DNA of 64,000 nt from an uncultured Ferruginibacter sp. (GCA_964439615.1 CAYTQB010000003.1:21453-85452), one strand, 5' to 3'. Shown: positions 18,515 to 60,469, counted from the first letter of the stretch. The notes: generated from the letters alone by a model not told the origin. Program-made: numbers and translations.

Positions 18515-18613
18515 AATGTGCTAATGTGCTGATTTACTAATATGCTAATTCCAAAAATGCAGAGAGCATGCGTTAAACATTAGCAAATAAGCACATTGGC
18601 TAATTAGCAAATT
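18515..18613. repeat. Inverted array of 8-nt units (AATGTGCT x4 / AGCACATT-like x4)
   Basis: Left aatgtgct-aatgtgct-gatttact-aatatgct; right cattagca-aataagca-cattggct-aattagca. Confidence 0.75.
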
Positions 18614-18615
18614 AA

Positions 18616-19266
18616 TTATGCATACTTCACAATTATACTTTCTATTACGTTTGCAGCATCCTCACATTTGTCAGTCACAATTTCCATCACCTGGTAAATC
18701 TCCCTTTTCTTGATCACCTCTTTGGCATCTGGTTCTTCAGCAAACAATTTTTCAATACTCATATCAAAAATATCATCACCCTGGTTTTCTATACTGTTGA
18801 TGGTAACAAGTGCATCGGTGATCTGGCGCATGTTCTTCATATTACGCAGTTCCTTTACTGCCGCATGTACCGCCACACATCCCTGTGCAATAATATCTGC
18901 CATCTTGTGAATGCCGGTGTCATTGGGATTAACCCGGTAAAAATTGATCTTCTTAGCTGATGCCTGGATATAGTCGGCAATATCATCCAGTGCAGAGGCC
19001 AGGTAGTGAATATCTTCCCGGTCAAAGGGTGTAATAAAATTCTTTCCCAGTTCGGTAAATATCTGGTGGGTGTAATCATCATTCACATGCTCCATATCTT
19101 CAATTTCTTTGATCAGCTTTGCCCTTTCATCAAAGTCGGGTTCATTAACCACTTCCTTTAATTTCTCTCCCATTTTTACCAATACATCTACCACGTTTTC
19201 GAACAATTGAAAAAACACCCTGTCTTTAGGTAAAAAGATCTTGAGAATTGAATTTAACCCTGCCAT
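18616..19266 (-). CDS. DUF47 / PhoU-like phosphate transport regulator (likely start ATG 19266)
   Basis: TELGKNFITPFDREDI, ENQGD and TDKCEDAANVIESIIVKYA motifs; directly upstream of PiT. Confidence 0.92.
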   Translation of the reverse strand: MAGLNSILKIFLPKDRVFFQLFENVVDVLVKMGEKLKEVVNEPDFDERAKLIKEIEDMEHVNDDYTHQIFTELGKNFITPFDREDIHYLASALDDIADYIQASAKKINFYRVNPNDTGIHKMADIIAQGCVAVHAAVKELRNMKNMRQITDALVTINSIENQGDDIFDMSIEKLFAEEPDAKEVIKKREIYQVMEIVTDKCEDAANVIESIIVKYA

Positions 19267-19327
19267 ATAATAAGTTTTGGGCAAAGATTGGTTATTACAC
19301 AAAAAACCAGTGTCTCATCAGGATTGA

Positions 19328-19355
19328 TAATAATTTCTTAACACAGGGGTAATAT
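19328..19355 (+). promoter_or_regulatory. Pho-box-like array upstream of the porin gene
   Basis: TAATAA (19328), TAACAC (19339), TAATAT (19350) at 11-bp period. Confidence 0.55.
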
Positions 19356-19390
19356 TAAATTGTTATTCCTTTGCGGCGAAATTTGCTATA

Positions 19391-20698
19391 ATGCTTACAA
19401 AAAGACTGCCTTTGCTGCTTGCAGCATTGCTATTGTGCCAATGGCTGCATGCCCAGTTCTTAATGGATATGGTAGATACCACCAAAGAAACAGGTAAAGG
19501 TCTATTGGCTGTATATAAAAAGTTCGATCACCTGCGTATCGGCGGGTATATTCAACCCCAGTTCCAGGTAGCTTCTGCAAAAGGGGCGAAAAATTTTGAG
19601 GGTGGCGATTTTGCTTCCCAGGTAAATAACCGTTTTATGTTGCGCAGGAGCAGGGTACGTATCGACTATATTCATTTTGGCAAAGACACAAAACCCGGTG
19701 TACAGATCGTTTTTCAGTTTGATGCCAATGAAAGGGGATTTACTGTAAGGGATGTATGGGGCAGGATCGTTGAAAATAAATTCAAACTCTTTTCTTTTAC
19801 CACCGGTATTTTTGCCAGGCCATTTGGTTATGAAATAAACCTGAGCAGCAGCGACCGGGAAAGCCCCGAACGTGGACGCATGAGCCAGTTGCATGCAAAG
19901 AGCGAGCGTGACCTGGGCGCCATGTTAAGCTTTGAAGTAAGGCAAAAATCAAATCCATTAAAAAATATCAGGATCGACCTTGCTGTATTCAATGGACAGG
20001 GCATTAATGCCACAGGCGAATTCGACAATACAAAGGATCTTGTAGGACGAATAATATTAAAGCCTGTTCCTATCAGCAAAACTATCCAGCTATCGGCTGG
20101 GGCTTCCTTTCTGCATGGTGGCCTACAGAATAATACCAAATACATTTATACAACAGAAGCCACCGGTGCTGTAAAAAGAGTAGTAGTTGATTCTGCCGCC
20201 AGTAATATTGGTACCACATCGCCCCGGCGCTATTATGGAGCCGATATGCAACTGAAATTCAATAATGGCCATAACCGAATTACCGAATTGAGGGCCGAAT
20301 TCATCACCGGCATACAAACCGGCACAGCCAATAACCCCGAAACACCTACCGCATTACTTACAGGAACCGATGGTTTTCACAAACGGCATTTCACCGGCGC
20401 TTATTTTTATTTACTGCAGCACCTTTTTTCAACCCAGCACCAGTTAATTATCAAATATGACTGGTATGACCCAAACAGTAAAGTAAAAGGCAACGAGATC
20501 GGGGCCCCGGGTTCTAATTTTACAGCTGCCAACATAAGATATAATACGCTTGGTTTAGGCTACCTGTATTATGTTACCGAAAACATCAAACTGGTTTTAT
20601 ACTATGCCCGGGTTTGGAATGAAAAAACATTACTCACCGGTTATACAACCGATGTAAAAGACAATGTTTTCACTTGCAGGCTGCAATACCGTTTCTGA
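19391..20698 (+). CDS. Phosphate-selective porin (OprO/OprP family)
   Basis: Signal peptide, RIGGYIQPQF, ESPERGRM, alternating beta strands, C-terminal LQYRF; phosphate-gene context. Confidence 0.75.
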   Translation: MLTKRLPLLLAALLLCQWLHAQFLMDMVDTTKETGKGLLAVYKKFDHLRIGGYIQPQFQVASAKGAKNFEGGDFASQVNNRFMLRRSRVRIDYIHFGKDTKPGVQIVFQFDANERGFTVRDVWGRIVENKFKLFSFTTGIFARPFGYEINLSSSDRESPERGRMSQLHAKSERDLGAMLSFEVRQKSNPLKNIRIDLAVFNGQGINATGEFDNTKDLVGRIILKPVPISKTIQLSAGASFLHGGLQNNTKYIYTTEATGAVKRVVVDSAASNIGTTSPRRYYGADMQLKFNNGHNRITELRAEFITGIQTGTANNPETPTALLTGTDGFHKRHFTGAYFYLLQHLFSTQHQLIIKYDWYDPNSKVKGNEIGAPGSNFTAANIRYNTLGLGYLYYVTENIKLVLYYARVWNEKTLLTGYTTDVKDNVFTCRLQYRF

Positions 20699-20711
20699 GT
20701 GCATATTCCGT

Positions 20712-20750
20712 TAACATATACGTAACATAGCAGTAACAATTACCTAACCT
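20712..20750 (+). promoter_or_regulatory. Pho-box-like array upstream of the TonB-dependent receptor
   Basis: TAACAT (20712), TAACAT (20723), TAACAA (20734), TAACCT (20745) at exact 11-bp period. Confidence 0.8.
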
Positions 20751-20805
20751 TACTTTCATCTTGACATAATACATAAGTAGTCTTTTTGCAGTAAATATTT
20801 ATTGC

Positions 20806-23586: not shown

Positions 23587-23612
23587 ATAAAAAACACTTA
23601 AAAAAAATAAAC

Positions 23613-25022: not shown

Positions 25023-25046
25023 TAAAAAAATCTTAAGCAAATAGCG

Positions 25047-25070
25047 ATCCTGAACGCAGTTGAAGGACTC
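25047..25070. repeat. Degenerate REP-like palindrome (CCTGAACGCAGTTGAAGG)
   Basis: Resembles the GAGCGAAGTCGA hairpins at 34179-34227. Confidence 0.45.
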
Positions 25071-25078
25071 ATGCTTGA

Positions 25079-25112
25079 GCCGGCTTTATTCTTATTGCCG
25101 GCCTTTTTATTT
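25079..25112 (+). terminator. Intrinsic terminator after the lipoprotein gene
   Basis: GCCGGC-N12-GCCGGC stem followed by CTTTTTATTTCTTT. Confidence 0.65.
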
Positions 25113-25119
25113 CTTTCCA

Positions 25120-25850: not shown

Positions 25851-26900
25851 TCAATCTTTCCTGGTTTGTAACGTAAATCCAAACGTACTCCCCACATCTG
25901 TCTTGCTTCGTACATGAATGGTTTGCCCGTGTGCCTCAATAATGTGTTTGCAGATAGATAAACCCAGGCCGCTGCCGCCCACTTTCCGGCTCCTTGCCAG
26001 GTCGGTACGGTAGAACCGTTCAAATATGCGGTGCAGGTGCTCTTCAGAAATGCCGGAACCATCGTCACTTATCTCAATTAATATTCTTGCCCCGTCAACT
26101 TTATAGAAACTGGATTCAATGATACCATGCTGTTTTCCGTATTTAATGGCGTTATCCACCAGGTTAATAAATACCTGACGTATCTTTTCTTTATCTGCAA
26201 AAACGGTCAATGGTAATTCGCAACCTTTTTTAATGATGCACCTGATCTGTTTTTCATCTGCTTTCATCGCTAAGGATTCATACACTTCTTTCAGCAGGTC
26301 CTGTATAACAAAACTGTCTTTTAATAAAAGTTGTTCCCCGCTTTCTAATTTTGAGATGGCATCCAGGTCATCTACTAGGTTCACCAGCCGGTCAATATTG
26401 CGGGAAGTACTCTGCAGGAATTTTTTATTCACTTCAGGATTATCCAATGCACCGTTGATGAGCGTATCCACATAACCCTGTATGGCAAAGATGGGTGTCT
26501 TCAGTTCGTGGCTCAGGTTCTGCAAAAATTCTTTGCGGTAGGCTTCATTCTGCTGCAACATCTCTATCTCTGCCTTGCGTTGCCGGGCCCAGCTTTCCAC
26601 ATCATCCCTTACTTCATCAATACTTTTTTGCGGTAGAATATTTTTATAATAAAATTCTTCTTTCTTGCTTGCCTTGGTCTGGTAAATGAATTTGTAGATG
26701 AGTTTTATTTTACGGTAAATGAAATTCTGCAGCGTGTATAATATCAACCCGTAAGAACCAAGGAAGATGACAACAAATGATGAAAGGGCTATCCACCATA
26801 CCGGCTTAAATATATATATACCCAGTGCAATAGGAATGGCCAGCGCTAATGCGGTTAAACCCGATAATTGCTGTGGTGAAATGTTTTTTGAAGATGGCAT
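25851..26900 (-). CDS. phoR: Sensor histidine kinase, PhoR-like
   Basis: Two N-terminal TMs, FLQNLSHELKTP H-box, NLVDNAIKY, DDGSGI, FERFYR and GSGLGLSI motifs; phosphate context. Confidence 0.85.
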   Translation of the reverse strand: MPSSKNISPQQLSGLTALALAIPIALGIYIFKPVWWIALSSFVVIFLGSYGLILYTLQNFIYRKIKLIYKFIYQTKASKKEEFYYKNILPQKSIDEVRDDVESWARQRKAEIEMLQQNEAYRKEFLQNLSHELKTPIFAIQGYVDTLINGALDNPEVNKKFLQSTSRNIDRLVNLVDDLDAISKLESGEQLLLKDSFVIQDLLKEVYESLAMKADEKQIRCIIKKGCELPLTVFADKEKIRQVFINLVDNAIKYGKQHGIIESSFYKVDGARILIEISDDGSGISEEHLHRIFERFYRTDLARSRKVGGSGLGLSICKHIIEAHGQTIHVRSKTDVGSTFGFTLQTRKD

Positions 26901-26904
26901 GGTT

Positions 26905-26989
26905 GGTCATTACTCATTAGTCACTTGTCATTTCTGTCGATAGTAAAGTTACTGGCAAAAAATGACTCAATGACCAATGACTAATGATC
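26905..26989. repeat. Inverted array of 7-nt units (AGTCATT x4 / AATGACT x4)
   Basis: Left ggtcatt-actcatt-agtcact-tgtcatt; right aatgact-c-aatgacc-aatgact-aatgatc. Confidence 0.8.
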
Positions 26990-26994
26990 GATTT

Positions 26995-27678
26995 TTATAT
27001 TTGGAACTTATACCCCACTCCTTTCACCGTCGTGATACAATCGAGATTGAGCTTCTGCCTTATCTTACGGATATGTACATCAATGGTGCGGTCTCCCACA
27101 ATCACTTCAGTTCCCCAAACCTGGTTCAATATTTCGTTGCGGAGAAAAACTTTACCCGGTTTACCTGCCAGCAACGCCAGCAATTCAAATTCCTTACGGG
27201 CCAGGATGATATTATTACCCAGGTAATTGATGATGTATTTTTCCCGGTCAATTTTCAGGTCGCCTATCTGCAGCAAGCCGGTATCTTCTTTATTGATACG
27301 CCTGAACAGGGCGTTCACCTTACTCACCAAAACCTTAGGGCTTACCGGTTTGGTTAGATAATCATCAGCCCCTGTCTCCAGCCCCTTCACCTCACTTCCT
27401 TCGTCGCTCAATGCGGTAAGGAATATGATGAGTGTATCATTGAATGCAGGTTGCAGGCGAAGGATATTACATACTTCAATCCCATTCTTGCCGGGCATCA
27501 TAATATCGAGAATGATCAGGTCGGGTTGGAATTTTTTCGCCATGTCAATGGCTTCATTACCATTCTTTGCGGTAACCACTTCATATCCTTCATTCCGCAG
27601 GTTGTATTGGATGATTTCAAGGATATCCGGTTCGTCGTCGGCAATTAATATTTTTTTAACAGTATTTGCTGTCCCCAT
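26995..27678 (-). CDS. phoB: OmpR/PhoB-family response regulator (likely start ATG 27678)
   Basis: ADDE, LDIMMP, GADDYLTKP receiver; RTIDVHIRKIR...TVKGVGY winged helix. TATTTTTG -7 at 27685-27692 covers the ORF-track TTG start. Confidence 0.85.
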   Translation of the reverse strand: MGTANTVKKILIADDEPDILEIIQYNLRNEGYEVVTAKNGNEAIDMAKKFQPDLIILDIMMPGKNGIEVCNILRLQPAFNDTLIIFLTALSDEGSEVKGLETGADDYLTKPVSPKVLVSKVNALFRRINKEDTGLLQIGDLKIDREKYIINYLGNNIILARKEFELLALLAGKPGKVFLRNEILNQVWGTEVIVGDRTIDVHIRKIRQKLNLDCITTVKGVGYKFQI

Positions 27679-27722
27679 ACAATGCAAAAATAGTCTTTAC
27701 CGTTAATTAGGAACCCGGTTTG

Positions 27723-34263: not shown

Positions 34264-34758
34264 ATGCAGTTACTTACACCGGCCTTTGGCCTTATTATCT
34301 GGACACTCTTAGCATTCCTTATTGTTTTTTTTCTGCTGAAAAAATTCGCATGGCCAATGATCATTGGTGGATTGGCACAAAGAGAAAAGACCATTGCTGA
34401 TTCTTTGGCCACTGCCGAAAAGATAAAGCTTGAAATGGCACAGATGAAGAATGATAATGAAGCCATTCTTGCCAAAGCCCGTGAAGAAAGGGCAACCATG
34501 CTTAAAGAAGCAAAGGAAACCAAGGATAAGATGATCAACGATGCTAAAGAAGAGGCAAAAGTACAGGCAGCTAAGATCGTTGCCGATGCACAGGCTTCTA
34601 TCAATAATCAGAAAATGGCTGCGTTGACAGAGATAAAAAACCAGGTAGGTAGCCTCGTACTTGAAGTAAGTGAAAAAGTATTGAGAAAAGAATTAAGCAA
34701 CAAAGCAGAGCAGGAGAATTATATCAAAACCCTGGCTGCAGAAGTAAAACTTAACTGA
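34264..34758 (+). CDS. atpF: F0F1 ATP synthase subunit b
   Basis: N-terminal TM with LLKKFAW, followed by a coiled coil. Confidence 0.95.
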   Translation: MQLLTPAFGLIIWTLLAFLIVFFLLKKFAWPMIIGGLAQREKTIADSLATAEKIKLEMAQMKNDNEAILAKAREERATMLKEAKETKDKMINDAKEEAKVQAAKIVADAQASINNQKMAALTEIKNQVGSLVLEVSEKVLRKELSNKAEQENYIKTLAAEVKLN

Positions 34759-34838
34759 TTTGATAATTTGAAGATTTGGTAATGTGCTAGTTGTGCAGAC
34801 TCCTATCACCAAATCTTCAAATTACCAAATTACCAAAT
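34758..34838. repeat. Inverted array of 8-nt units (ATTTGGTA / TACCAAAT)
   Basis: TGATAATTTGAAGATTTGGTAAT pairs with ATCACCAAATCTTCAAATTACCA (21/23). Confidence 0.85.
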
Positions 34839-34845
34839 CGAAGAA

Positions 34846-40503: not shown

Positions 40504-41361
40504 TTATTGGATCTTCTTTTTTACTTTATCCAGCAAATTATTGATGTCTTCGGTTTGTTTATTGTCAATAGCAAATACATATTCCAGGTTATAAAAATTG
40601 GCTGCCGACCTGAACCTGATCAGGTAGTTGCTGGTACTTTTTTCAGGTATCAATTCTGTTACCGTACCAACGATCATCCCTTTCGGCAGGCTGGTACTGA
40701 ACCCGCTGGAGATAATTGTATCTCCCACGGCTACCTTAGCGCTTTTTGGAATACCGATAAGGGAAATAATATTAGGTATCCGGCCATCCCAGTTAAGTGT
40801 TCCGGTTTCTCCACTCTTCAATAATTTTCCGCTGATATGGCTGTCCTTATGCAAGAGGCTCATCACAACCGCATAGTCTTTACTAAGCTCTGTAATAATA
40901 CCTACCACACCATTGTTAGGATCTATAATACCCATGCCCTCTTTTAATTGTTGCGCCTGGCCCCTGCCCAATACAATAAAATTGTTTTGCGATGCTACCG
41001 AATTATATACCACTTTGGCGCCATAATAAGTATATTTTCTATGTTGCTCAATCGAATCAACCCGTATGGTATCAATTACAGTTTTGCTGGTGGTGTCGGG
41101 CAGTTCAAAGTTGGCTTTAAGTTTATTGTACAATTTCTCATTGGCGCTTACCAGTGAGTCATTGGTTTTTTTAAGCCTGAAATAATGCTCCACTCTGCTG
41201 TACTGTGTATTTACTTTACCGGTAAGCTGGTTTGCTATATTACCGAAGACCGCATTATGGTATTTGCTGTAATGAACGATCAAATAGATGCAGAACCCCT
41301 GCAATAAGAGGAAGAAAAGAAAATTAAAATACCTGCGAATGAAAAGAAAAATATTACGCAC
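40504..41361 (-). CDS. mreC: Rod shape-determining protein MreC (GTG start)
   Basis: N-terminal TM, GVVG, GDTIISSG and PKGMIVG motifs; operon position. Confidence 0.93.
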   Translation of the reverse strand: MRNIFLFIRRYFNFLFFLLLQGFCIYLIVHYSKYHNAVFGNIANQLTGKVNTQYSRVEHYFRLKKTNDSLVSANEKLYNKLKANFELPDTTSKTVIDTIRVDSIEQHRKYTYYGAKVVYNSVASQNNFIVLGRGQAQQLKEGMGIIDPNNGVVGIITELSKDYAVVMSLLHKDSHISGKLLKSGETGTLNWDGRIPNIISLIGIPKSAKVAVGDTIISSGFSTSLPKGMIVGTVTELIPEKSTSNYLIRFRSAANFYNLEYVFAIDNKQTEDINNLLDKVKKKIQ

Positions 41362-41375
41362 CGGGGAAGGATATT

Positions 41376-41458
41376 TTAAATATTGAATGTTAAATGCTGA
41401 ATTAAAGACTTTAAGTTTTTGTTACCCGCCATTTAAAATTCAAAATTCAACATGTAAC
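41376..41458. repeat. Inverted array of 7-nt units (TTGAATG / CATTCAA)
   Basis: Left ttaaata-ttgaatg-ttaaatg-ctgaatt; right atttaaa-attcaaa-attcaac-atgtaac. Confidence 0.7.
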
Positions 41459-41467
41459 ATAGAAATA

Positions 41468-42493
41468 CTATCTCATTACAAAAGGATACCTGTCATAATG
41501 TTTCAATGCAATACCTGTACCCCTTACCACACTTTTCAATGGATCGTCAGCCACATGAACCGGAAGTTTGATCTTTGCATTTAACCGTTTGTCAAGTCCT
41601 CTTAGCAAAGCACCACCACCGGTTATATATAATCCCCGGCGATAGATATCGGATGCCAGTTCAGGAGGAGTTGTTTCCAAAGCTTTCAGAATGGCTTCTT
41701 CAATCTTAAAAATACTCTTGTCTAATGCTTCGGCTACTTCCTGGTAACTAACCATCACTTGTTTAGGTATGCCGGTAACCAGGTCTCTTCCGTTAACCGG
41801 AATGTCGTCGGGTGGGTTTTCAAGGTCTTTTGTTGCAGCGCCAACCTGTATTTTTATCTGTTCTGCTGTACGTTCTCCAATCAATAAACTATGGTAACGA
41901 CGAAGGGCTTCCATAATATCGGCTGTAAACTCATCACCGGCAATACGAATACTTTGGTCGCAAACAATACCAGCGAGGGCAATTACAGTAATTCCCGTAG
42001 TACCACCACCAATATCGATGATCATATTACCAACAGGCTCTTCCACATCAATACCAATACCTAAGGCCGCAGCCATAGGCTCGTGTATAAGATAAACCTC
42101 CTTGGCTCCGGCCTGCTCGGCACTATCCCGTACGGCACGTTTTTCTACCTCGGTGATGCTGCTGGGTATGCATATCATCATACGCCAGCTGGGCGCAAAC
42201 AGTGGTTTTTTGGGATAGATGAGTTTGATCATTTCCCTGATCATCAACTCAGCAGCATTAAAGTCGGCAATTACCCCATCTTTTAAAGGGCGGACGGTGC
42301 GGATGCTTTCATGAGTCTTCTCATGCATCATCAGCGCTTTTTTACCTACTGCTAAAATGTTCTTCGGATTGTTCCGGTCTAATGCGACAATAGAGGGTTC
42401 ATTTACTACGATCTCATCATTGTGGATAATGAGGGTATTGGCTGTTCCTAGATCAATTGCAATTTCCTGTGTAAAAAAATTAAAAAGGCCCAT
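41468..42493 (-). CDS. mreB: Rod shape-determining protein MreB
   Basis: IDLGTANT, DIGGGTT and TGGGALL motifs. Confidence 0.98.
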   Translation of the reverse strand: MGLFNFFTQEIAIDLGTANTLIIHNDEIVVNEPSIVALDRNNPKNILAVGKKALMMHEKTHESIRTVRPLKDGVIADFNAAELMIREMIKLIYPKKPLFAPSWRMMICIPSSITEVEKRAVRDSAEQAGAKEVYLIHEPMAAALGIGIDVEEPVGNMIIDIGGGTTGITVIALAGIVCDQSIRIAGDEFTADIMEALRRYHSLLIGERTAEQIKIQVGAATKDLENPPDDIPVNGRDLVTGIPKQVMVSYQEVAEALDKSIFKIEEAILKALETTPPELASDIYRRGLYITGGGALLRGLDKRLNAKIKLPVHVADDPLKSVVRGTGIALKHYDRYPFVMR

Positions 42494-47836: not shown

Positions 47837-49030
47837 TTAAAGAAATTTCAGATAATCGTATTGTTTTCCGAGTATGGTCTTATCATCGGCACTAAGCCAT
47901 TTATTTAACACCGTAGCATATACATTTTTGAAGTCAACTTTGTGTTTCAGGTCACCCTCATTAAGATCAGCGAGATCTGGCATTGCATTCAAAATTCCTT
48001 TTTCCTTCAATCCACCACTGATAAAGAACATATTGTTTGCTGTTCCGTGATCGGTTCCGCCGCTTGCATTCTGGGATACCCTTCTGCCAAATTCACTGAA
48101 GGTCATCATCAGAACATCCTGGAAACGGTTATTGGCTTTCAGGTCGGCAATAAATGATTTTACGGCGTCATTCAGTTCTGTAAATAATCTTTTCTGCTGG
48201 TTGTCCTGGTTCACATGCGTATCAAAACTTCCCAGGCTTACATAATACACTTTGGTATTGATGTCGGAGAAGATAAGCGAAGCAATGGTCTTCAGGTCTT
48301 TCCCAAGTTCGGTATTAGGGTAGGTTTGTGATGAGGGATGAACCCGGCTTTGCTGATAAATATAATCAGCGCTGCTGAGTGTTGCACTCATGGTTTTGTA
48401 CAAATAGTCAATAGTTTCTTCCCCGTGCTGATGGTCGCTGTTCACATCTTTAAAATACTTTCCATTGCTGCTGTTGAATAATTTTTTAGGGTCCTTGAAT
48501 GCAAGGCCTTTATTCTCTTCTCCTTTTAATGCAAGACTTAATACATCATCCAGTTCCATAGCCTGGGTGGGTTTATCGCATCCTTTGCATTGAGCATCCA
48601 AATAGCGGCCAACCCAGCCTGTATTTATATATTCATTACTGTTGCTGGCGCTGTGCCAGATATCCATACTGCGGAAATGAGAACGGTCGGGGTTGGGATA
48701 CCCCACGCTGTTCAGTATGGACAGGTTTCCTTCATCATACAAACCTTTGAACGTTTCCAATGCCGGATTCAATGCTGTTTCATCGGTAAGCAACAAAGAT
48801 TTTTCCTTCGTAATCCCAAGCTTGGGCCTTTCCTTGTAATAAATATCATTACGCACAGGTATTACGGTGTTCAAACCGTCATTACCTCCGCTAAATTGAA
48901 TTACCACCACTACTTTATTACCGGGTGGCACCATCATCGGTCTTTCAAATGCCTTTAAGAATTTAGGCAGCATGAATGATGCCGTGGCCAATGAACCTAC
49001 TTGTAAAAATTCTTTGCGCTTAATAAGCAT
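47837..49030 (-). CDS. DUF1501 family protein with a Tat-like signal
   Basis: KRKEFL signal, GGNDGLNT, DRSHF, GSFDTH, FSEFGRR and GTDHG motifs. Confidence 0.9.
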   Translation of the reverse strand: MLIKRKEFLQVGSLATASFMLPKFLKAFERPMMVPPGNKVVVVIQFSGGNDGLNTVIPVRNDIYYKERPKLGITKEKSLLLTDETALNPALETFKGLYDEGNLSILNSVGYPNPDRSHFRSMDIWHSASNSNEYINTGWVGRYLDAQCKGCDKPTQAMELDDVLSLALKGEENKGLAFKDPKKLFNSSNGKYFKDVNSDHQHGEETIDYLYKTMSATLSSADYIYQQSRVHPSSQTYPNTELGKDLKTIASLIFSDINTKVYYVSLGSFDTHVNQDNQQKRLFTELNDAVKSFIADLKANNRFQDVLMMTFSEFGRRVSQNASGGTDHGTANNMFFISGGLKEKGILNAMPDLADLNEGDLKHKVDFKNVYATVLNKWLSADDKTILGKQYDYLKFL

Positions 49031-49041
49031 AATTTTTTATT

Positions 49042-49105
49042 TTGAATGTTGAATTATAAATGTTGAATAAGGCCTTCATTCAACATTCATCATTTATCAT
49101 TTAAC
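49042..49105. repeat. Inverted array of 7-nt units (TTGAATG / CATTCAA)
   Basis: Left ttgaatg-ttgaatt-ataaatg-ttgaata; right attcaac-attcatc-atttatc-atttaac. Confidence 0.8.
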
Positions 49106-50552
49106 ATAGTTGGTATTCCGGTGTACTCATCAGATTTACGATAGCGCTTTTTATATAGTTTTCCCTGTTCTCTGTATTCAGGTATTTCTCCAGCACTTTA
49201 TTACTTACCTGGCTTTTTGTTTGTAAGACCGTTGCTGATACATTCTCTAACAATTTTTCCCGTTGAACCTTCTCAAAAATTTTATTTACTACCGGCCATT
49301 CAATAGTGGCTGTACCACCTTTCACCGCTTCTTTCATTCTTTTTACATTGGCTTCCATCATTTGCCCCATCATTACATCATCATCGGCTTTGGGACGAAT
49401 GTCGGGCATCTCGTTTGCTGTAAGTATTTGAGGAATACGTAAACGCAACATCAGCGAACTGCTGTCTATCCAGCTCTTCCCCCCGGGCCAGCCCGCAACA
49501 TTGGGCGGAAAGAACAGTACCTGGCCCAAGGTGCGTTGAAACAATAATTGCGCCTGGTCATTTTCCATTTGCATAGGCAGTAACCTTCTTATGCCAACCA
49601 ATAATTCTACCGGGGATTTTATTTTAGTGCCCATATTTTTTTCAGCATAAAACCAGTCGCTGGTATATATATCTTCCAGCAGTTTTTTTATCTCGTAGCC
49701 GTTTTGATAAAAGCGGTTGCTTAACCATTCCACTTTCGCCTCATCAATCGTATCGTTTACAAAATATTTGTACAGTTTCTTTGTGATAAACCTGGCCGTT
49801 TGTTTTTGCTCTGTCAAAAGTTTAATGATCTCATCTCCGTCGAAATTTCCTGTTTTACCTAATACGGTTTTATTGCCATTATCATGCTGGTTAGGCCTGA
49901 AAACAAATTCGCCACGTGGATTAAAGCCCCAGCCCGTAAATGCCCTTGCTGCTTCCTTTACATCATTTTCGGTGTAATTTCCACGGCCCATGGTAAAAAG
50001 TTCCATCACTTCCCGGGCAAAATTTTCATTGGGGTGCTGTTTCCTGTTTTGCTGGTTATTCAGGAATTGGAGCATGGCCGGGCTTTTGCTCACAGCCATT
50101 AACATGTCTTTGAAGTTACCCAATGCATTCTCCCTGATCACATGCAATAACTCCTGCTGAAAATAACTGTTGTTAACACGGCAGGCAAAATGCCCATGCC
50201 AGAACAGGCTCATTTTTTCCCTCAACTGCGATTGACTGTTAACCATTTTATCAAGCCACGCAATGTTCAGTTTTTTCAATCCCTCCCTTGACATATCCTG
50301 TATTTCCTTTCGCTGCTCCCTGGTTAATTCGGATCTTTTCATGCCATCCATCTCTTTTGCCCCGGCGAAATAAGTATCGATCAGGTTTTGAGATACATTC
50401 ATCTTCTCAGGCATCTTTTCCGAGGTCTTTACCAAAAGCTCCCATAATTTTTTCTGTGAAATAGTATCAAGTGATTCAGCATTTTCGGCCATGGGGCCAA
50501 ATGCAGCACGCCACAATAAATGCTGATTTTTTAAACGATTGGATGCCGGCAT
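49101..50552 (-). CDS. DUF1800 family protein
   Basis: HLLWRAAFGP, LFWHGHFA, PNENFAREVMELFTMG, ARAFTGW and PPNVAGW motifs. Confidence 0.92.
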   Translation of the reverse strand: MPASNRLKNQHLLWRAAFGPMAENAESLDTISQKKLWELLVKTSEKMPEKMNVSQNLIDTYFAGAKEMDGMKRSELTREQRKEIQDMSREGLKKLNIAWLDKMVNSQSQLREKMSLFWHGHFACRVNNSYFQQELLHVIRENALGNFKDMLMAVSKSPAMLQFLNNQQNRKQHPNENFAREVMELFTMGRGNYTENDVKEAARAFTGWGFNPRGEFVFRPNQHDNGNKTVLGKTGNFDGDEIIKLLTEQKQTARFITKKLYKYFVNDTIDEAKVEWLSNRFYQNGYEIKKLLEDIYTSDWFYAEKNMGTKIKSPVELLVGIRRLLPMQMENDQAQLLFQRTLGQVLFFPPNVAGWPGGKSWIDSSSLMLRLRIPQILTANEMPDIRPKADDDVMMGQMMEANVKRMKEAVKGGTATIEWPVVNKIFEKVQREKLLENVSATVLQTKSQVSNKVLEKYLNTENRENYIKSAIVNLMSTPEYQLC

Positions 50553-51241: not shown

Positions 51242-52513
51242 TTAGTTAATGCTGGTTTGACCGAAGTATTTGTGAAGTACCGCAGGCAGGTTTATCGTCT
51301 TATCTGACTGGTTATTTTCCAGCAGGCAGGCAACGATCCTCGGCAATGCAAGGGAAGATCCGTTCAACGAATGCAGTAGTTGTGTTTTATTATCCCCGTC
51401 TTTAAATCTTATCTTCATCCTGTTGGTTTGAAAGGTTTCAAAATTACTTACCGAACTTACCTCCAGCCATTTTTGTTGTGCAGCGCTATACACTTCAAAA
51501 TCGTAAGTGAGTGCAGAGGCAAAGCCCATATCGCCGCCGCAAAGTCTTAATATCCGGTAAGGCAGTTCAAGTGAGTTCAATAATTTTTCTACATGGTTCA
51601 CCATTTCTTCCAACACATTATAACTCTTATCCGGGTGAACTATCTGAACAATTTCAACCTTATCGAACTGGTGTACCCTGTTCAAACCCCTCACATCGGC
51701 TCCAAAACTTCCTGCCTCCCTTCTGAAACATGGAGTGAAGGCCGTCATTTTTACGGGCAGGTCATTTTCTTTTAAAATTTCATCCCGATAAATATTGGTC
51801 AGTGGTACTTCGGAAGTTGGTATCAAATAAAAATTATCTTCTGCTGCATGGTACATCTGTCCTTCTTTATCCGGCAATTGTCCTGTTCCATATGCAGAAG
51901 CTGCATTCACCATCAGTGGCGGCAGGTATTCGGTATAACCTGCTGCTGTATTATAATCCAGAAAATACTGGATAAGTGCCCTTTGTAGTTTTGCACCCTG
52001 GCCTTTATATAATGGAAAGCCGCTTCCGGTTAATTTAGCGCCGGTTTCAAAATCAACAATGTCATATTTTTTTATGAGTTCCCAGTGCGGAACAGCCGAT
52101 GCAGGCAGTGAGGTTTTTTTACCCCCTTCCCTCACCACTTGATTTTCTTCAGGTGTTTTACCTTTTGGTACAGAACTATGAGGCAGGTTAGGTAGTTTTA
52201 CCAGTTCATCATGCAATGATATTTCAGCGTCTGTCAACTGCTGGTTCAGGCTTTGTAAATTAGTTTTATAGCCTGCAACTGCCTGTTTTTTATTTTCGGC
52301 AGCATCCTTTTCCCCCTTTCCCATCAACATCCCTATTTCTTTGCTGGCTGTATTAATGGCTGCTTGTAAGCTTTCAGTTTCGGTCTTTAGTTTTCTTACC
52401 TGTTCGTCTGTTTCCAGGATCTTATCGACCACAGACAGATCTCCAAAGTTCTTTAATGTCAATCTTTCTTTTACCAATGCGGTATTCTGCCTTATATAAC
52501 CGATCTGTAACAT
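51242..52513 (-). CDS. serS: Seryl-tRNA synthetase
   Basis: LIPTSEVP, CFRREAGS, RVHQFDKVE, EVSSVSN and SLNGSSLA motifs; TATCTTTG at 52533-52540. Confidence 0.98.
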   Translation of the reverse strand: MLQIGYIRQNTALVKERLTLKNFGDLSVVDKILETDEQVRKLKTETESLQAAINTASKEIGMLMGKGEKDAAENKKQAVAGYKTNLQSLNQQLTDAEISLHDELVKLPNLPHSSVPKGKTPEENQVVREGGKKTSLPASAVPHWELIKKYDIVDFETGAKLTGSGFPLYKGQGAKLQRALIQYFLDYNTAAGYTEYLPPLMVNAASAYGTGQLPDKEGQMYHAAEDNFYLIPTSEVPLTNIYRDEILKENDLPVKMTAFTPCFRREAGSFGADVRGLNRVHQFDKVEIVQIVHPDKSYNVLEEMVNHVEKLLNSLELPYRILRLCGGDMGFASALTYDFEVYSAAQQKWLEVSSVSNFETFQTNRMKIRFKDGDNKTQLLHSLNGSSLALPRIVACLLENNQSDKTINLPAVLHKYFGQTSIN

Positions 52514-52559
52514 GTGTCCTTAAAAATTTCGCCAAAGATACAGTTTTGAGCCAAGGATA

Positions 52560-52638
52560 GAACGCTGATCAGGCGGATAACGCTGATGATCGTTGGTTTA
52601 ATCCGTGATCATCGGCTTAATCTGTGTCATCCGTGTTC
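52560..52638. repeat. Imperfect inverted array of ~9-nt units (ACGCTGAT/ACACGGAT family)
   Basis: gaacgctgatcaggcggataacgctgatgatc versus gatcatcggcttaatctgtgtcatccgtgttc, between divergent promoters. Confidence 0.65.
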
Positions 52639-52650
52639 TATATTTGCAGG

Positions 52651-53004: not shown

Positions 53005-53014
53005 TTATTTACTT

Positions 53015-54194: not shown

Positions 54195-54209
54195 TTATTA
54201 CATTATGCC

Positions 54210-54644: not shown

Positions 54645-54723
54645 AAGCCCTGTGGGGTGGGGTTAGCTTGTTTCAACGGCTTTTAGTCCGTACATTTGTA
54701 AATACGCAAAACATAAAAATAAC

Positions 54724-55443: not shown

Positions 55444-55446
55444 TAA

Positions 55447-55566
55447 ACACGAATTAGGCGAATTATACGAATTTAAAATACATACCTGGTGCCAAAGAAC
55501 ATCAGGTTTTTTATTTACGTTTGCCTGTCTAATTCGTGTAATTGGTGTAATCAGTTAAATTAGTGT
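55447..55566. repeat. Inverted array of 9-nt units (ACACGAATT / AATTCGTGT) enclosing a terminator hairpin
   Basis: Left acacgaatt-aggcgaatt-atacgaatt; right aattcgtgt-aattggtgt-aatcagtta-aattagtgt; inner ACCTGGTG/CATCAGGT+T (55484-55512). Confidence 0.75.
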
Positions 55567-56880
55567 ATGCAATCATTTGAGGTAAGCGGCGGAAAAAAAC
55601 TTTCAGGAGAAATTACTCCCCAGGGTGCAAAGAACGAAGCCTTGCAGGTGATATCGGCAGTACTATTGAGCCCCGGAAAAATTACCATCAGCAATATTCC
55701 TGATATACTGGATGTAAACCTGCTGATAGAATTGCTGGGCGAAATGAAAGTGAAGATAAACAGGACAAGCAGAGATACCTGCAGTTTCCAGGCAGATGAC
55801 GTTGATATTGATTACCTGCATAGTGAGTCGTATCACAAAAAGAGTGGAAGATTAAGAGGTTCTGTAATGTTAGCCGGACCCATGCTTGCCAGGTTTAAAA
55901 AAGTATATATACCAAAACCCGGTGGTGATAAAATTGGCCGGCGCAGGTTAGATACCCATATCATAGGGTTTGAGAAATTAGGTGCAAAGTTTTCTTATGA
56001 TAGTGATGATGGATTCTTTCATCTGGAATCTGCAGGATTAAAGGGAACTAAGATTTTGCTGGATGAACCCAGCGTTACCGGCACTGCCAATATTTTAATG
56101 GCAGCTTCTATGGCAAGCGGCACAACCACCATCTACAATGCTGCCTGTGAACCCTATGTACAACAACTTTGCAAAATGCTTAACCGCATGGGAGCAAAGA
56201 TCAGCGGTATCGGCAGTAATATGCTTATCATTACCGGGGTTGATCATTTAGGCGGAACAGAGCATCGCATGTTACCCGATATGATTGAAGTAGGTTCCTT
56301 CATTGGTTTGGCCGCCATGACACAAAGTGATATTACTATCAGGAATGCAGGTGTTGAACATTTGGGTATCATCCCCGAAAAATTTCAACAACTCGGTATT
56401 CAACTGAATTGTAAAGGAGATGATATACATATTCCTGCACAGGAATTTTATGAAGTGCAGAAATATATGGATGGGGGTGTTTTGACTGTTTATGATCATC
56501 CCTGGCCGGGTTTTACACCCGACCTGTTGAGTATAGTTTTGGTAACCGCTATACAGGCAAAAGGAAGTGTATTGATACACCAGAAGATGTTTGAGAGTCG
56601 CTTGTTCTTTGTAGATAAACTGATCGACATGGGAGCCCAGATCATTCTCTGTGATCCTCATCGTGCAGTTGTTATTGGTTTGGAAAGAGAACAACATTTG
56701 CGTGGCATTACAATGAGTAGTCCCGATATACGTGCAGGAGTTGCTTTGCTTATTGCTGCATTAAGTGCACAGGGAAAAAGTGTCATCCAAAATATTGAGC
56801 AAATTGACAGGGGCTACCAGCATATTGATGAGCGCCTGAGGAACCTGGGAGCAGATATTAAACGGGTAATGAGCCTCTAA
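55567..56880 (+). CDS. murA: UDP-N-acetylglucosamine 1-carboxyvinyltransferase
   Basis: GAKNEAL, PGGDKIGRR (Asp in place of the catalytic Cys), PWPGFTPD and DIRAG motifs. Confidence 0.96.
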   Translation: MQSFEVSGGKKLSGEITPQGAKNEALQVISAVLLSPGKITISNIPDILDVNLLIELLGEMKVKINRTSRDTCSFQADDVDIDYLHSESYHKKSGRLRGSVMLAGPMLARFKKVYIPKPGGDKIGRRRLDTHIIGFEKLGAKFSYDSDDGFFHLESAGLKGTKILLDEPSVTGTANILMAASMASGTTTIYNAACEPYVQQLCKMLNRMGAKISGIGSNMLIITGVDHLGGTEHRMLPDMIEVGSFIGLAAMTQSDITIRNAGVEHLGIIPEKFQQLGIQLNCKGDDIHIPAQEFYEVQKYMDGGVLTVYDHPWPGFTPDLLSIVLVTAIQAKGSVLIHQKMFESRLFFVDKLIDMGAQIILCDPHRAVVIGLEREQHLRGITMSSPDIRAGVALLIAALSAQGKSVIQNIEQIDRGYQHIDERLRNLGADIKRVMSL

Positions 56881-56924
56881 AGTACAGGTAATTGCGCTTT
56901 GACTTGTTTTTCTTTTCTTTGCAC

Positions 56925-57500
56925 ATGGCTTCCATTCACCAGAAAATATTAATTATCACCGCTCCTTCAGGCGCAGGTAAAACGTCTATTACAAGATACC
57001 TGATGAAAGTTTTTCCCGTACTGGAATTTTCGGTATCTGCAGCAACACGTGCTGCAAGAGGTACTGAAAAAGACGGCGTGGATTATTATTTTATGAGTGA
57101 AGATGATTTCAAACAGAAGATACAGAACAAGGAATTTGCTGAATGGGAAATGGTGTATGAGGGAAAATATTATGGCACATTAAAATTTGAATTGAAAAGA
57201 ATATGGGCGCTCAACAAGATCCCTGTATTGGATATTGATGTGAAAGGAGCCATACACATACAACAGCAATATCCTGAGAATACACTCAGTCTTTTTGTAG
57301 AGCCTCCGTCGGTAGATGAATTGAAGAAGCGACTCCTCAGCCGTGGCACCGAAACGGAAGAATCATTAGCCGCACGGGTAAATAAAGCCACCTATGAAAT
57401 TTCTTTCAAAGAACACTTCAATAAAAGCGTGGTAAATGACAACCTGGTACGTGCCTGCGCCGAAGCCGAAAAAATTGTGGGTGATTTTATCAGCCAGTAA
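56925..57500 (+). CDS. gmk: Guanylate kinase (likely start ATG 56925)
   Basis: APSGAGKT, SVSAATR, DGVDYYF and DIDVKGA motifs. Confidence 0.96.
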   Translation: MASIHQKILIITAPSGAGKTSITRYLMKVFPVLEFSVSAATRAARGTEKDGVDYYFMSEDDFKQKIQNKEFAEWEMVYEGKYYGTLKFELKRIWALNKIPVLDIDVKGAIHIQQQYPENTLSLFVEPPSVDELKKRLLSRGTETEESLAARVNKATYEISFKEHFNKSVVNDNLVRACAEAEKIVGDFISQ

Positions 57501-57541
57501 CCCCAAAAAACAGGTTTAAAAACTCTTTCTTATTTTTAGGT

Positions 57542-58828
57542 ATGGATTGGATAACCCCGCTTGCCATTATTATTTCGCTTTTGCTGATCGGTTTTTTTGC
57601 CGGTATCGAAATTGCCTTTATTTCGGCCAATAAATTATCCATTGAATTAAACCGTAAGCAAGGCACCCATAGCGGAAAGGTATGGGGATATTTTTCTGAC
57701 CGCCCCACCCGTTTCATAGGCACCATATTAGTGGGTATCAATATCGTATTTGTTGTTTATGGGTTGTTGATAGTGGATATGTTATCTCCCATCTGGCTTT
57801 GGATAAAATCAAACCTGCCCGTTTCTTTTAAAAGTTCAGTGGATTATATCAAGCTCTTTGTTGAAACCATCCTGTCCACCCTAATCGTTCTTTTTGTAGA
57901 GTTTATATGCAAGGCTTTCTTCCGGGCCAGGAACAACAATGTACTTAATTCAGGAACCATCAGCTATATCATGCAGTTCTTCTACTGGTTGCTCTCTTCT
58001 ACAGCAGCCCAGTTGGTCAATATTGCCGAATGGATACTGAAATATATTTTCAATGTGAAGATCCACAATAAAAAAGAGATGTTCAGCAAAGTTGACCTGG
58101 AGCATTTTATGCAGCAAAGCGCAGGCAATGAAGAAGAAGACAGCAGCGAGATCAATAAAGAATTATTTGAAAATGCATTATCGCTCAGTGAAACCAAACT
58201 AAGGGAATGCCTGATACCACGGAAAGAGATTGAAGGCGTAAGCAGTAATACATCCATAGTGGAGGTAAAAGAAAAATTCATTAAAACGCAACTAAGCAAA
58301 CTGGTGGTGTACGACAATAATATTGATACCATAGCAGGATATATTCACCAGCTTGACCTGTTTAAGCACCCTTCTTCTGTAAAAGACATATTACTACCGA
58401 TACCTACGGTGCCTGAAAGCATGAGTGCAACCGACCTGATGAATAAATTCAGCAAGGAAAGAAAAACCATTGCCTGGGTAATTGATGAGTTTGGTGGCAC
58501 GGCGGGTATTGTAACCATGGAAGACCTGCTGGAAGAGATCTTTGGAGAGATCAAAGACGAATATGATACGGAAGAGTTTGTAGAGAAACGTTTGTCAGCC
58601 AATGAATTTATTTTCAGCGGCAGGGTTGAGCTTGATTATATAACCGAAAAATACAAGCTGGCATTTCCGAATGATGAAGAAACGGAAACGCTTTCGGGCT
58701 ATATTATTAAGAACAATGAAGAGATCCCCCGGTTAAAAGACCATATCATCATCGGTAATTATGAAATCGACATTCTGAATGTAAGCGATACCCGGATAGA
58801 AATGGTAAAGCTTAAAGTTTTAAAATAA
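57542..58828 (+). CDS. Hemolysin-family CNNM/CBS/CorC protein
   Basis: FFAGIEIA CNNM TM domain, CBS pair, DEFGGTAGIVTMEDLLEEIFGEI and CorC-like C-terminus. Confidence 0.92.
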   Translation: MDWITPLAIIISLLLIGFFAGIEIAFISANKLSIELNRKQGTHSGKVWGYFSDRPTRFIGTILVGINIVFVVYGLLIVDMLSPIWLWIKSNLPVSFKSSVDYIKLFVETILSTLIVLFVEFICKAFFRARNNNVLNSGTISYIMQFFYWLLSSTAAQLVNIAEWILKYIFNVKIHNKKEMFSKVDLEHFMQQSAGNEEEDSSEINKELFENALSLSETKLRECLIPRKEIEGVSSNTSIVEVKEKFIKTQLSKLVVYDNNIDTIAGYIHQLDLFKHPSSVKDILLPIPTVPESMSATDLMNKFSKERKTIAWVIDEFGGTAGIVTMEDLLEEIFGEIKDEYDTEEFVEKRLSANEFIFSGRVELDYITEKYKLAFPNDEETETLSGYIIKNNEEIPRLKDHIIIGNYEIDILNVSDTRIEMVKLKVLK

Positions 58829-58864
58829 TGGTGTTGCAACCAACCCTCTCTTATTTTATTTAAC

Positions 58865-59983
58865 ATGATAATCGCCGTTAACAGCAGGTTTTTAGGGGAA
58901 ACTCAGCCTGATGATTTAGAGAACTTTATCACTGAATGTTTTTCCAGGTTAGCTTTTAAATATGCACAACATCAATTCCTCTACATTTTTAATAAGCCCT
59001 TTGATAAGGACCTGAATTTTCCAAAAAATGTAACGGCTGTTTTTGCCGGCCCCGAAACAAAAAATACCATTTTGTTACAATACTGGCTTAATTATAAATT
59101 ACCTGCCCTCTTACGAAAGTACAAAGCTGAAGTATTTGTAAGTATAGATGGCATGTGTTCCCTGCGTACCAAGCTACCTCAGTGTATGTTAGTGCATGAT
59201 CTCTCTTTCCTGCAATATCCAGGTCTTTTGAAAAAAACGCAGGTACGGTTTCTGAAAAAGTTTACATCGCTGTTTTTAGCTAAAGCAAAAAATATTGTGA
59301 CTGTTTCTCAATTTCACAGATCGCTCATCATTGATCAATACAAAGTTGATACTGGTAAGATCGATACAATCTATCCGGGTATCAATAAACTTTTTATTCC
59401 TGTTTCATTTGAAGAAAGGGAATTGACCAAAGAAAAATATGCAGAAGGAAGAGAATATTTCTTATGCTTGGGTTCAACCGGCTTCAACAGTAATCTCATC
59501 AATCTCTTAAAAGCTTTTTCTTTTTTTAAAAAAAGGCAGAAGAGCAATATGATGTTGCTCATTGCTGATAAAACAGATGAGCAGTTTAAGCAGGAACTGA
59601 AGACATTTAAGTTCAGGAACGAGGTTAAACTTTTGGAAGCTCTATCAAAAGAGGACGTAGCGAAAATAACGGCTGCTGCTTATGCTATGGTTCACCCGGT
59701 TTTTTATGATGCATTTGCAACAGCCCCATCAGGAGCTATGCAATGCAGAGTGCCTGTGCTGTGCAGTAATACTGATACACTGAATGAGTTGTGTGGGAAT
59801 GCGGCATTATATTTTAACCCCGAAGATTTTAAAGACATTGCCGAAAAAATGATGTTGGTATTCAAGGATGAAGACATGGCCAAGGGGCTTGTTAGGACAG
59901 GAGAAATTCGATGCAGGGACTACGATTGGGATAAAACGACCGGTTTGTTATGGCAATCCATACTAAAAGCCATTGATAACTAA
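58865..59983 (+). CDS. Glycosyltransferase family 4-like protein with degenerate donor-binding motifs
   Basis: GT-B features (VHDL, IVTVSQF, PVLCSN, ALYFNP) but DAFATAPSGAM replaces EGFGxPxxEAM. Confidence 0.75.
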   Translation: MIIAVNSRFLGETQPDDLENFITECFSRLAFKYAQHQFLYIFNKPFDKDLNFPKNVTAVFAGPETKNTILLQYWLNYKLPALLRKYKAEVFVSIDGMCSLRTKLPQCMLVHDLSFLQYPGLLKKTQVRFLKKFTSLFLAKAKNIVTVSQFHRSLIIDQYKVDTGKIDTIYPGINKLFIPVSFEERELTKEKYAEGREYFLCLGSTGFNSNLINLLKAFSFFKKRQKSNMMLLIADKTDEQFKQELKTFKFRNEVKLLEALSKEDVAKITAAAYAMVHPVFYDAFATAPSGAMQCRVPVLCSNTDTLNELCGNAALYFNPEDFKDIAEKMMLVFKDEDMAKGLVRTGEIRCRDYDWDKTTGLLWQSILKAIDN

Positions 59984-60064
59984 ATTCAGCTAATTTTGCA
60001 ACCTGCCTGCCATAAGGCAGGTTCACAAACGAAACAGCTATGGATGAGACCCATAGATAAAACC

Positions 60065-60409
60065 ATGAATCAATCTACCATAAAAATTGATGTACTACTA
60101 GACCCCAACAAAATACCCGAGCAAATAAACTGGTCGGCCACCGACAGCACGGCAGATATGATGCAAAAAGCCAAGGCTATGAACATAGCATTTTGGGACG
60201 GCGCTGATAAGACCGCTATGCGTATTGACCTTTGGACAAAAGATATGATGGTGGATGAGATGGCCGATTTTTATTACCAGATGCTAATGGGTATGGCCGA
60301 TACTTTTAAAAGAGCTACCCACCAGCAGGAAATGTGTGATGATATGAAAAAATTTGCGAAAGAATTTTTTGAAAAATTCAGAGCCATACAACTGAAGGAA
60401 CAAAAATAG
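60065..60409 (+). CDS. gldC: Gliding motility protein GldC (likely start ATG 60065)
   Basis: LDPNKIPE, FWDG, RIDLWTKDMMVDEM and TFKRAT motifs; TAATTTTG at 59991-59998. Confidence 0.9.
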   Translation: MNQSTIKIDVLLDPNKIPEQINWSATDSTADMMQKAKAMNIAFWDGADKTAMRIDLWTKDMMVDEMADFYYQMLMGMADTFKRATHQQEMCDDMKKFAKEFFEKFRAIQLKEQK

Positions 60410-60411
60410 CT

Positions 60412-60469
60412 GGAATTAGTAATTTGGAAAACCTGCAAATTAAAAGTACCCAACCTAATTACAAATTCC
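60412..60469. repeat. Short inverted array of 8-nt units
   Basis: GGAATTAGTAATTTGG versus CCTAATTACAAATTCC (14/16). Confidence 0.55.

Follow-up and report, generated by a model that had tools for sequence, protein, structure and literature searches.

Between positions 18,510 and 60,471 of a 64,000-nucleotide stretch of DNA from an uncultured Ferruginibacter sp. (GCA_964439615.1, CAYTQB010000003.1:21453-85452; referred to here as the window, with positions counted from its first letter), eight gaps between genes are occupied by inverted repeats whose arms are built of short tandem units. We consider here what these elements are and how they relate to small gene-carrying cassettes elsewhere in the same genome. 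Each of the eight sites consists of two inverted arms of two to four degenerate tandem units on either side of a unique spacer; the units are 7 nt long in four elements, 8 nt in two and 9 nt in one, and in the remaining element the unit is composite and longer. RNA folding on the strand of the adjacent genes gives a single long hairpin for each of the eight, at -11.8 to -39.5 kcal/mol (z-scores between -2.5 and -6.9 relative to dinucleotide shuffles), the weakest being that at 60411-60471, between gldC and yqeY. A first description made from the DNA without database searches, the sequence-only reading, had reported eight such repeats and had placed seven of them between co-directional genes; all eight are present as described, and identification of the flanking genes bears out that context.

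The elements have no strand of their own. The first, at 18510..18616, has about four AATGTGCT-type 8-nt units per arm (-29.4 kcal/mol, z -3.7; matched by the detector introduced below) and lies between genes assigned by Pfam to PhoU_div/DUF47 (18616-19302, minus strand) and to the PHO4 phosphate transporters (16796-18505, minus strand). AGTCATT-type 7-nt units make up the second, at 26903..26990 (-33.6 kcal/mol, z -6.1), which is flanked by a phoB-like response regulator (26995-27687, minus strand) and a histidine kinase (25851-26900, minus strand). The third, at 34755..34841, with 8-nt units of the ATTTGGTA/GATTTGGT type (-28.9 kcal/mol, z -6.9), occupies the spacer between atpF and atpH from the stop codon to 5 nt upstream of the ATG. 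Two elements share TTGAATG-type 7-nt units: one, at 41371..41464 (-16.6 kcal/mol, z -3.3), between mreB (41468-42493, minus strand) and mreC (40504-41361, minus strand), and the other, at 49038..49108 (-15.9 kcal/mol, z -3.3), between a DUF1800 gene (49101-50552, minus strand) and a DUF1501 gene (47837-49030, minus strand), where it is unchanged in six strain-level contigs. The sole divergent gap among the eight, between serS (51242-52513, minus strand) and an unknown open reading frame (ORF; plus strand), holds the element of the GGATAGAACGCTGAT flavour at 52553..52641 (-39.5 kcal/mol, z -6.0), which the period-based detector missed. Between DUF4290 and murA, the element at 55446..55566 (-33.1 kcal/mol, z -4.2) has 9-nt units of the ACACGAATT type in its two arms (approximately 55447-55474 and 55530-55566), which enclose a hairpin followed by a T-run that resembles an intrinsic terminator (55484..55516, plus strand) and has a homologue at the same junction elsewhere. 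The last element, at 60411..60471, is short, with GGAATTA-type 7-nt units (-11.8 kcal/mol, z -2.5).

The assembly that contains the window (3.70 Mb in 238 contigs, 40% GC, 92% complete), which the names of near-identical proteins place in Ferruginibacter (family Chitinophagaceae), was searched with a detector that calls two reverse-complementary tandem arrays of equal period (6-11 nt) spaced by no more than 90 nt. In its strict form it found 78 elements genome-wide and none in 200-nt block shuffles, in a relaxed form 103 against none, with six of the eight window sites recovered, and in a still laxer form 178 against 20. Intergenic segments taken alone, at 34% GC, gave 79 elements as opposed to 0-3 (mean 0.85) in 20 dinucleotide shuffles, so that an origin by chance in AT-rich intergenic DNA, the outcome that the sequence-only reading had itself named as fatal to its inference, is not upheld. 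We put the size of the family in this genome at about 100-160 hairpin elements. A scan of the 64-kb window against Rfam 15 returned no match at the gathering score. Each unit sequence, or flavour, has a family of copies scattered through the genome, AAAAGTC being the largest, followed by GGTTTGA, GGCAATN, TGAATGT, GATTTGGT, CACNAAGG, ACGAATTAC and others, and polarity is constant inside each family; the earlier view of the flavours as unrelated one-offs therefore has to be given up. The elements sit close to genes, with a median of 4 nt from stop codon to element edge. Among the 103, 57 lie in co-directional, 18 in convergent and 7 in divergent gaps, and most of the remainder are artefacts that arise where an ORF runs on through a flavour without stop codons.

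The sequence-only reading had offered, as one of three possibilities, that the hairpins are empty, miniature versions of a cassette found elsewhere with a four-helix-bundle or GxxExxY gene inside, and had proposed a genome-wide search for copies with an ORF between the arms. A profile count over the whole genome found 14 genes of PF05635 (23S_rRNA_IVP, a four-helix bundle, S23p/Avd-like) and seven of PF13366 (PDDEXK_3, the GxxExxY nuclease). Inverted flanking arms (score of at least 11) are present at 20 of these 21 cargo genes, including 13 of the 14 PF05635 genes, and most are visibly tandem units of the gene-less flavours. The full element spans 420-570 bp and comprises a left array of two to five tandem 7-9-nt units, one small gene and a reverse-complementary array, the arms around the genes being 17-44 nt long. 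When the permitted distance between arms was widened, two size classes appeared, of 50-150 and 400-600 bp, with none at 200-400 bp. The left arms of the cargo cassettes match 69 of 104 gene-less elements in the same polarity and 3 in the opposite one, against 21 for a reversed-sequence control; at a score of at least 14 the corresponding figures are 52, 1 and 7. Together with the 20 armed cargo genes and a clear cognate cassette in this genome for seven of the eight window elements, this flavour matching supports the proposal of empty forms, as do the differences at orthologous junctions and between strains described below. The usual pattern is one cargo-bearing copy and several gene-less copies per flavour, as in AAAAGTC with 27 gene-less copies and a single cassette (on contig C31), and overall gene-less copies outnumber cargo copies by about five to one.

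The cognates of the window elements fall into both cargo families. Cassettes with a 23S_rRNA_IVP (IVP) gene correspond to the elements at 26903 (C40:15991-16454), at 34755 (C38:13825-14341) and, through their common flavour, at both 41371 and 49038 (C15:33835-34255), and a further one matches both arms of the element at 60411 (C28:27325-27794). The arms at 52553 match a PDDEXK_3 (GxxExxY) cassette at C97:6752-7221, and the cognate of the element at 55446 is the PDDEXK_3 cassette at C185:1456-1905. For the element at 18510 no cognate cassette was found in this 92%-complete assembly; its flavour recurs at the atpF/atpH junction of another genome (locus L010 of G016). The C38 cassette is nested, with the cargo gene followed by a second left-type array, a 70-nt spacer and the right arm, and has 23 identical bases (TTTGAAGATTTGGTAATGTGCTA) in common with window positions 34768-34790, reaching into the spacer. 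Two cargo genes (C28:27402-27719 and C62:7805-8134) contain an in-frame stop (TAA, TGA), as do many copies in the genus: cargo genes decay while arms persist.

We therefore read the eight sites as representatives, lacking a gene, of a hairpin-cassette family that is built like the ORF-bearing intervening sequences (IVSs) of 23S rRNA and consists of heptamer-type repeats, and we give this reading, the mechanism proposed for it included, a probability of roughly three in four. Each of the 21 cargo genes of this genome has the same orientation as the genes on either side, and in a cruder genus-wide sample the cargo agrees with the downstream gene in 38 of 43 cases and with the upstream gene in 29 of 43; from this uniformity we infer that expression of the cargo would depend on host promoters, through transcriptional read-through. 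The long stem may make the insert tolerable to the host, most likely because RNase III, whose gene is present in the genome, would excise it from the polycistronic RNA, as it does in the IVS precedent. Slippage and templated correction between the arms would keep them repetitive and mutually complementary. Finally, a flavour probably needs its cognate cargo protein in order to spread and be maintained, a dependence that would resemble the relation, described below, between dispersed palindromic doublets (REPINs) and their transposases (RAYTs), with different proteins.

Comparison across the genus, where individual genomes hold between 0 and 24 PF05635 genes and between 0 and 10 PF13366 genes, shows that the elements turn over between species. 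Recognisable arms accompany approximately two-thirds to three-quarters of 58 sampled genus cassettes, and dozens of further flavours are found there. As had been suggested by the sequence-only reading, presence and absence were compared at orthologous junctions, and occupancy or flavour varies at atpF/atpH, phoB/phoR and mreB/mreC. At atpF/atpH the genus has at least five flavours, or else gaps of 7-47 nt, and in other families of the order the gap is 3-29 nt in 11 of 12 genomes, the twelfth having an unrelated 133-nt spacer; at phoB/phoR at least six other flavours, or none, are found elsewhere in the genus; and at mreB/mreC there are three flavours among genomes whose MreB proteins are 100% identical. 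At two atpF/atpH loci (L002 of G001 and L005 of G011) there is a 141-143-nt element of another kind, with GC-rich outer arms (CCCCTATCCCC...GGGGCAGGGG, or CTCCGCCAGC...GCTGGCGGA) and a conserved AT-rich core that has a hairpin of its own.

Cargo and arms also travel together. Cargo proteins that are 65-73% identical occur with the same flavour and dissimilar flanks at L040, L043 and L041 (GAGCTGY) and at L031 and L051 (AAGTAWT), and cargo similarity tracks arm flavour; other cassette pairs occupy orthologous sites. Like cargo and like arms at sites without common flanks indicate that the two are inherited and relocated together. At orthologous sites the arms drift in concert, for example GGGTTTAA as compared with GGTTTAA, or GTTGGCC as compared with GTTGATA where the cargo proteins are 69% identical. 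The turnover at junctions and the presence of the same cassette at non-orthologous sites suggest that the cassettes are mobile; no transposition event was seen. Element density rises loosely with cargo number: of three genomes with just one cargo gene, two score 0 and the third 0.46 elements per 100 kb, a genome with three (G006) has 1.25, with two of the three elements found carrying the flavour of its own cassette, and genomes with 21 have 2.8-3.0, although the correlation over seven related genomes (rho 0.74, p 0.06) is only suggestive.

The same junctions lend themselves to another explanation, which enlarges on the mRNA hairpins for processing and stoichiometry control that the sequence-only reading had also raised, namely that the hairpins are selected by the host as RNA processing sites, protectors of 3' ends or translational insulators that set the stoichiometry of cistrons, and that the cassettes merely reuse them. 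It is appealing that elements lie where subunit ratios change (atpF/atpH, mreB/mreC) and also in nuo and ribosomal-protein operons, that they take up nearly the whole gap between a stop codon and the start that follows, and that about five of the eight window elements have predicted stems of sufficient length for RNase III. The repeated occupation of the same junctions by differing flavours across species could likewise mean selection for "some hairpin here". However, several members of the genus and nearly all other sampled families of the order have no element at the orthologous junctions (gaps of 3-36 nt), and two genomes of the genus have no element in 400 kb; the two strands show no asymmetry in stability or in G-U pairs; elements occur in the 18 convergent and 7 divergent gaps as well; and the link between flavour and cargo is left unexplained. 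We consider this explanation unlikely as a replacement for the cassettes.

Differences between strains bear on a further alternative. Strains with identical YqeY protein differ at gldC/yqeY by the insertion or deletion of one 7-nt unit in the right arm, and strains with identical AtpF protein keep the atpF/atpH element with a cluster of four substitutions in one left-arm unit; the elements are otherwise stable among strains with identical flanking proteins. The strain polymorphism whose absence the sequence-only reading had named as a refutation amounts to one unit-sized indel and one cluster of substitutions, a pattern that fits slippage together with templated correction between arms. Such changes are also what would be expected if the elements were passive by-products of replication under weak selection, slippage giving tandem units and template switching giving palindromes, with neither mobility nor function, and polymerase slippage has been put forward as the source of a general excess of heptamer repeats among bacteria (PMC4692102). 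Against this stands, strongly, the recurrence of flavours at many loci and around cargo genes with fixed polarity, as well as the occurrence of the same cassettes at non-orthologous sites and the existence of related genomes of similar GC content without any element in 400 kb. We regard a purely passive origin as very improbable.

Several observations weigh against the cassette reading itself, some of them concerning how a gene-less copy could be made. The spacers (median 27 nt) show no likeness beyond chance either to one another or to the interiors of cargo cassettes. The idea that they are remnants of deleted cargo, or a sequence common to the family, was rejected for want of matches, and neither simple deletion of cargo nor copying of whole hairpins explains the gene-less elements when the spacers are unrelated. 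A terminator homologous to the spacer of the element at 55446 (...CAGGTTTTTTATTTACGTTTGC) is found at the same junction in members of the genus that have no arms (L254, L235, L233 and L234), and in this genome as well as in G012 and G013 (L236, L237) it is bracketed by ACGAATTAC arms; judged by this comparison, the terminator at 55484..55516 is native host sequence, outside any mobile unit, which rules out insertion of the hairpin in one piece at this site. There is no sign of a target-site duplication, as the longest direct word common to the 12-nt outer flanks averages 3.02 nt and 3.21 nt after permutation, and no transposase is associated with the elements. The GGTTTGA family, of about 11 copies, is without a cargo copy in this assembly, and of the intergenic arrays in excess no more than roughly one in three belongs to a detected pair, many arrays being single or chimeric. 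The genome with the most cargo genes (G017, with 34) has only 0.61 gene-less elements per 100 kb. Sense and antisense folds are equally stable (-21.8 and -21.4 kcal/mol, p = 0.65) and G-U pairs are equally frequent on the two strands (134 and 127), so that there is no sign so far of selection at the level of RNA.

Single and chimeric arrays nevertheless keep their handedness. Pairs with a left arm of one flavour and a right arm of another occur, as do one-sided arrays, and it seems that an arm can originate or relocate by itself, as a half-element of fixed handedness. At the gldC/yqeY junction of G011 (L267) a left-type GGCAATN array stands beside right-type CTAAACC and TTAACAA arrays, at that of G031 (L263) there are seven CAATCAAC units whose partner arm is absent, and chimeric or one-sided arrays are also found at L261 (G009) and L262 (G001). 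A universal rule of "G-rich arm first", striking in cyanobacterial and in many four-helix-bundle flavours, was dropped, because only 17 of 25 flavour clusters in this genome obey it (p = 0.11); the nuclease-type flavours CACNAAGG and ACGAATTAC run the opposite way.

It is at this point that the third possibility put forward by the sequence-only reading, phased protein-binding arrays, deserves attention. In the form considered here the arms would be arrays of binding sites on DNA or RNA, each unit being a putative site for a sequence-specific protein, possibly the cognate pentamer or nuclease, and the inverted pair would act in the manner of an operator or a cruciform, with folding secondary. 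The closest solved relative of the PF05635 cargo, Xanthomonas XCC0516 (PDB 2GSC), was deposited with five chains, and the Xanthomonas S23p structure is described as a homopentamer (PMC4990558); a search of solved structures by sequence returned no relative for the nuclease cargo. That the sequence of the unit is kept among dispersed copies with unrelated spacers, that there is usually one cargo gene per flavour and arm flavour follows the similarity of the cargo proteins, that many single or chimeric arrays still hold left-type or right-type polarity, and that arms can bracket a native palindrome such as a host terminator all speak for binding. On the other hand, periods of 7-9 nt do not match the helical repeat of DNA, and for dozens of flavours these proteins, some 120 residues long, would have to offer as many dozens of specificities. 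Avd-type proteins are reported to bind nucleic acid without marked sequence specificity. Binding arrays also overlap with the cassette reading instead of replacing it, and as a separate account we think them quite unlikely; both they and the RNA hairpins discussed above could coexist with cassettes.

A more specific version of the cassette reading would absorb the idea of binding. It is tempting to speculate that each PF05635 pentamer or PF13366 nuclease recognises one 7-9-nt flavour and creates, spreads or maintains its own cassette and gene-less arrays, laid symmetrically around existing sequence, native terminator palindromes included, the whole forming a two-component selfish system. We put this forward tentatively, as a proposal with distinctly less than an even chance of being right.

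The closest known counterparts of the full-size elements are the IVSs found in the 23S rRNA genes of Coxiella burnetii, Leptospira and Brucella. In Coxiella the IVS measures 428 nt, contains an S23p ORF, ends in a stem of 28 bp and is removed from the transcript by RNase III (PMC4990558). In length (428-444 nt there, 420-570 bp here), in the terminal inverted repeats that form a 20-35-bp stem, seen here in the folds and in the arms around cargo, and in a PF05635/S23p cargo gene in sense orientation within a host transcription unit, distributed sporadically among relatives (PMC4990558), the two agree well. They differ in that an IVS lies in a helix of 23S rRNA (9, 25 or 45) whereas all eight window elements lie between protein-coding genes, in that the window elements have no ORF whereas their full-size cognates carry one, and in that the arms here are tandem 7-9-nt units in many flavours and a second cargo family, PF13366, takes part. 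The window elements are thus not IVSs in the strict sense, since they are outside the defining location and without an ORF. The 23S rRNA gene of this genome is not assembled, and a copy borne in rRNA would escape view.

The arms themselves recall the heptamer repeats of other bacteria. Short tandemly repeated repetitive (STRR) sequences of cyanobacteria are tandem heptamer repeats without an explained function. In Xanthomonas, 70-75 pairs of GGGAATC repeats are in convergent orientation (PMC4692102), and TAACTGA repeats have been described in Beggiatoaceae, Cyanobacteria and Bacteroidetes (PMC4679880). Like these, the arms are intergenic head-to-tail arrays, of 7-nt units in four of the eight window elements, whose copy number varies between relatives, but the heptamer repeats have been treated as simple-sequence repeats in their own right, as G-quadruplex formers or as signals in translation, and the papers cited (PMC4692102, PMC4679880) connect them neither with genes of PF05635 or PF13366 nor with hairpins that lack a gene; nor did a full-text literature search, from which most subscription journals fell outside, find any paper that ties repeats to genes of either family. 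When other phyla were sampled by tblastn against plasmids, the S23p genes returned were almost only from Cyanobacteria, and six of the eight opened have the same build, with GGGTGTA units in Calothrix, GGGAARA in Geminocystis, GGCAGRA in Stanieria, GGAGATAA in Picosynechococcus, AAAAGCY in Pseudanabaena and GGGCAGGA in Gemmatirosa (Gemmatimonadota). Two of these plasmid cassettes with four-helix-bundle genes lie in sense orientation inside CRISPR-cas operons, one in Pseudanabaena between cas6 and cas4 (L066), with very long AAAAGCT/AAAAGCC arrays, and one in Picosynechococcus between cas10 and cmr3 (L067). Plasmids gamma (L061) and alpha (L062) of Nostoc sp. PCC 7120 carry identical four-helix-bundle genes with only a 3' arm, of CTCTGCC units; their upstream sequence is alike, no 5' arm was seen in it, and L061 has an annotated ISL3 transposase gene immediately upstream.

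In their organisation the elements also resemble the doublets of repetitive extragenic palindromic (REP) sequences known as REPINs, which go with REP-associated tyrosine transposases (RAYTs): both are dispersed intergenic inverted doublets with several flavours per genome and usually a single cognate gene flanked by the same repeat (PMC3116915). The cognate genes here belong to PF05635 or PF13366, and not to the Y1/HUH transposases (PF01797), the arms are tandem arrays and not one palindromic REP, and the cargo genes are inside the doublet. Outside the window the genome has three clear Y1_Tnp genes (PF01797, RAYT/IS200-like; C16:52112-52456, C52:1030-1374 and C5:62254-62592), two of them flanked by GC-rich REP-like palindromes (GCCCCGTAGGGGC, GCCCCGGAGGGGC) and the third by nothing similar. 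A RAYT was considered as the mobilising enzyme and rejected, as the Y1_Tnp genes, where they have a repeat, carry this different, GC-rich REP-type one and never tandem-unit arms; a separate system of REP-RAYT type is present beside the tandem-unit hairpins. With miniature inverted-repeat transposable elements the hairpins have in common that they are short, non-coding, bounded by inverted repeats, dispersed and intergenic, but they lack a target-site duplication, a common internal sequence and a transposase-encoding parent. The elements are best filed as IVS-like cassettes, together with the gene-less derivatives of these, all composed of heptamer-type repeats.

Three puzzles have stood apart since about 1990: the origin and nature of the ORF-bearing IVSs of 23S rRNA, the excess of heptamer repeats (STRR, GGGAATC, TAACTGA) and the role of the small proteins of PF05635 and PF13366, both very large families. 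In this genome the three come together in a single cassette system, in which the link between flavour and gene can be counted, and that link opens these questions to experiment. In practical terms, the elements break assemblies, inflate intergenic spacers in essential operons and could serve as strain markers. Should the two-component system proposed above prove true, both the heptamer repeats of Cyanobacteria, Xanthomonas and Bacteroidota and the intervening sequences of rRNA would trace back to it.

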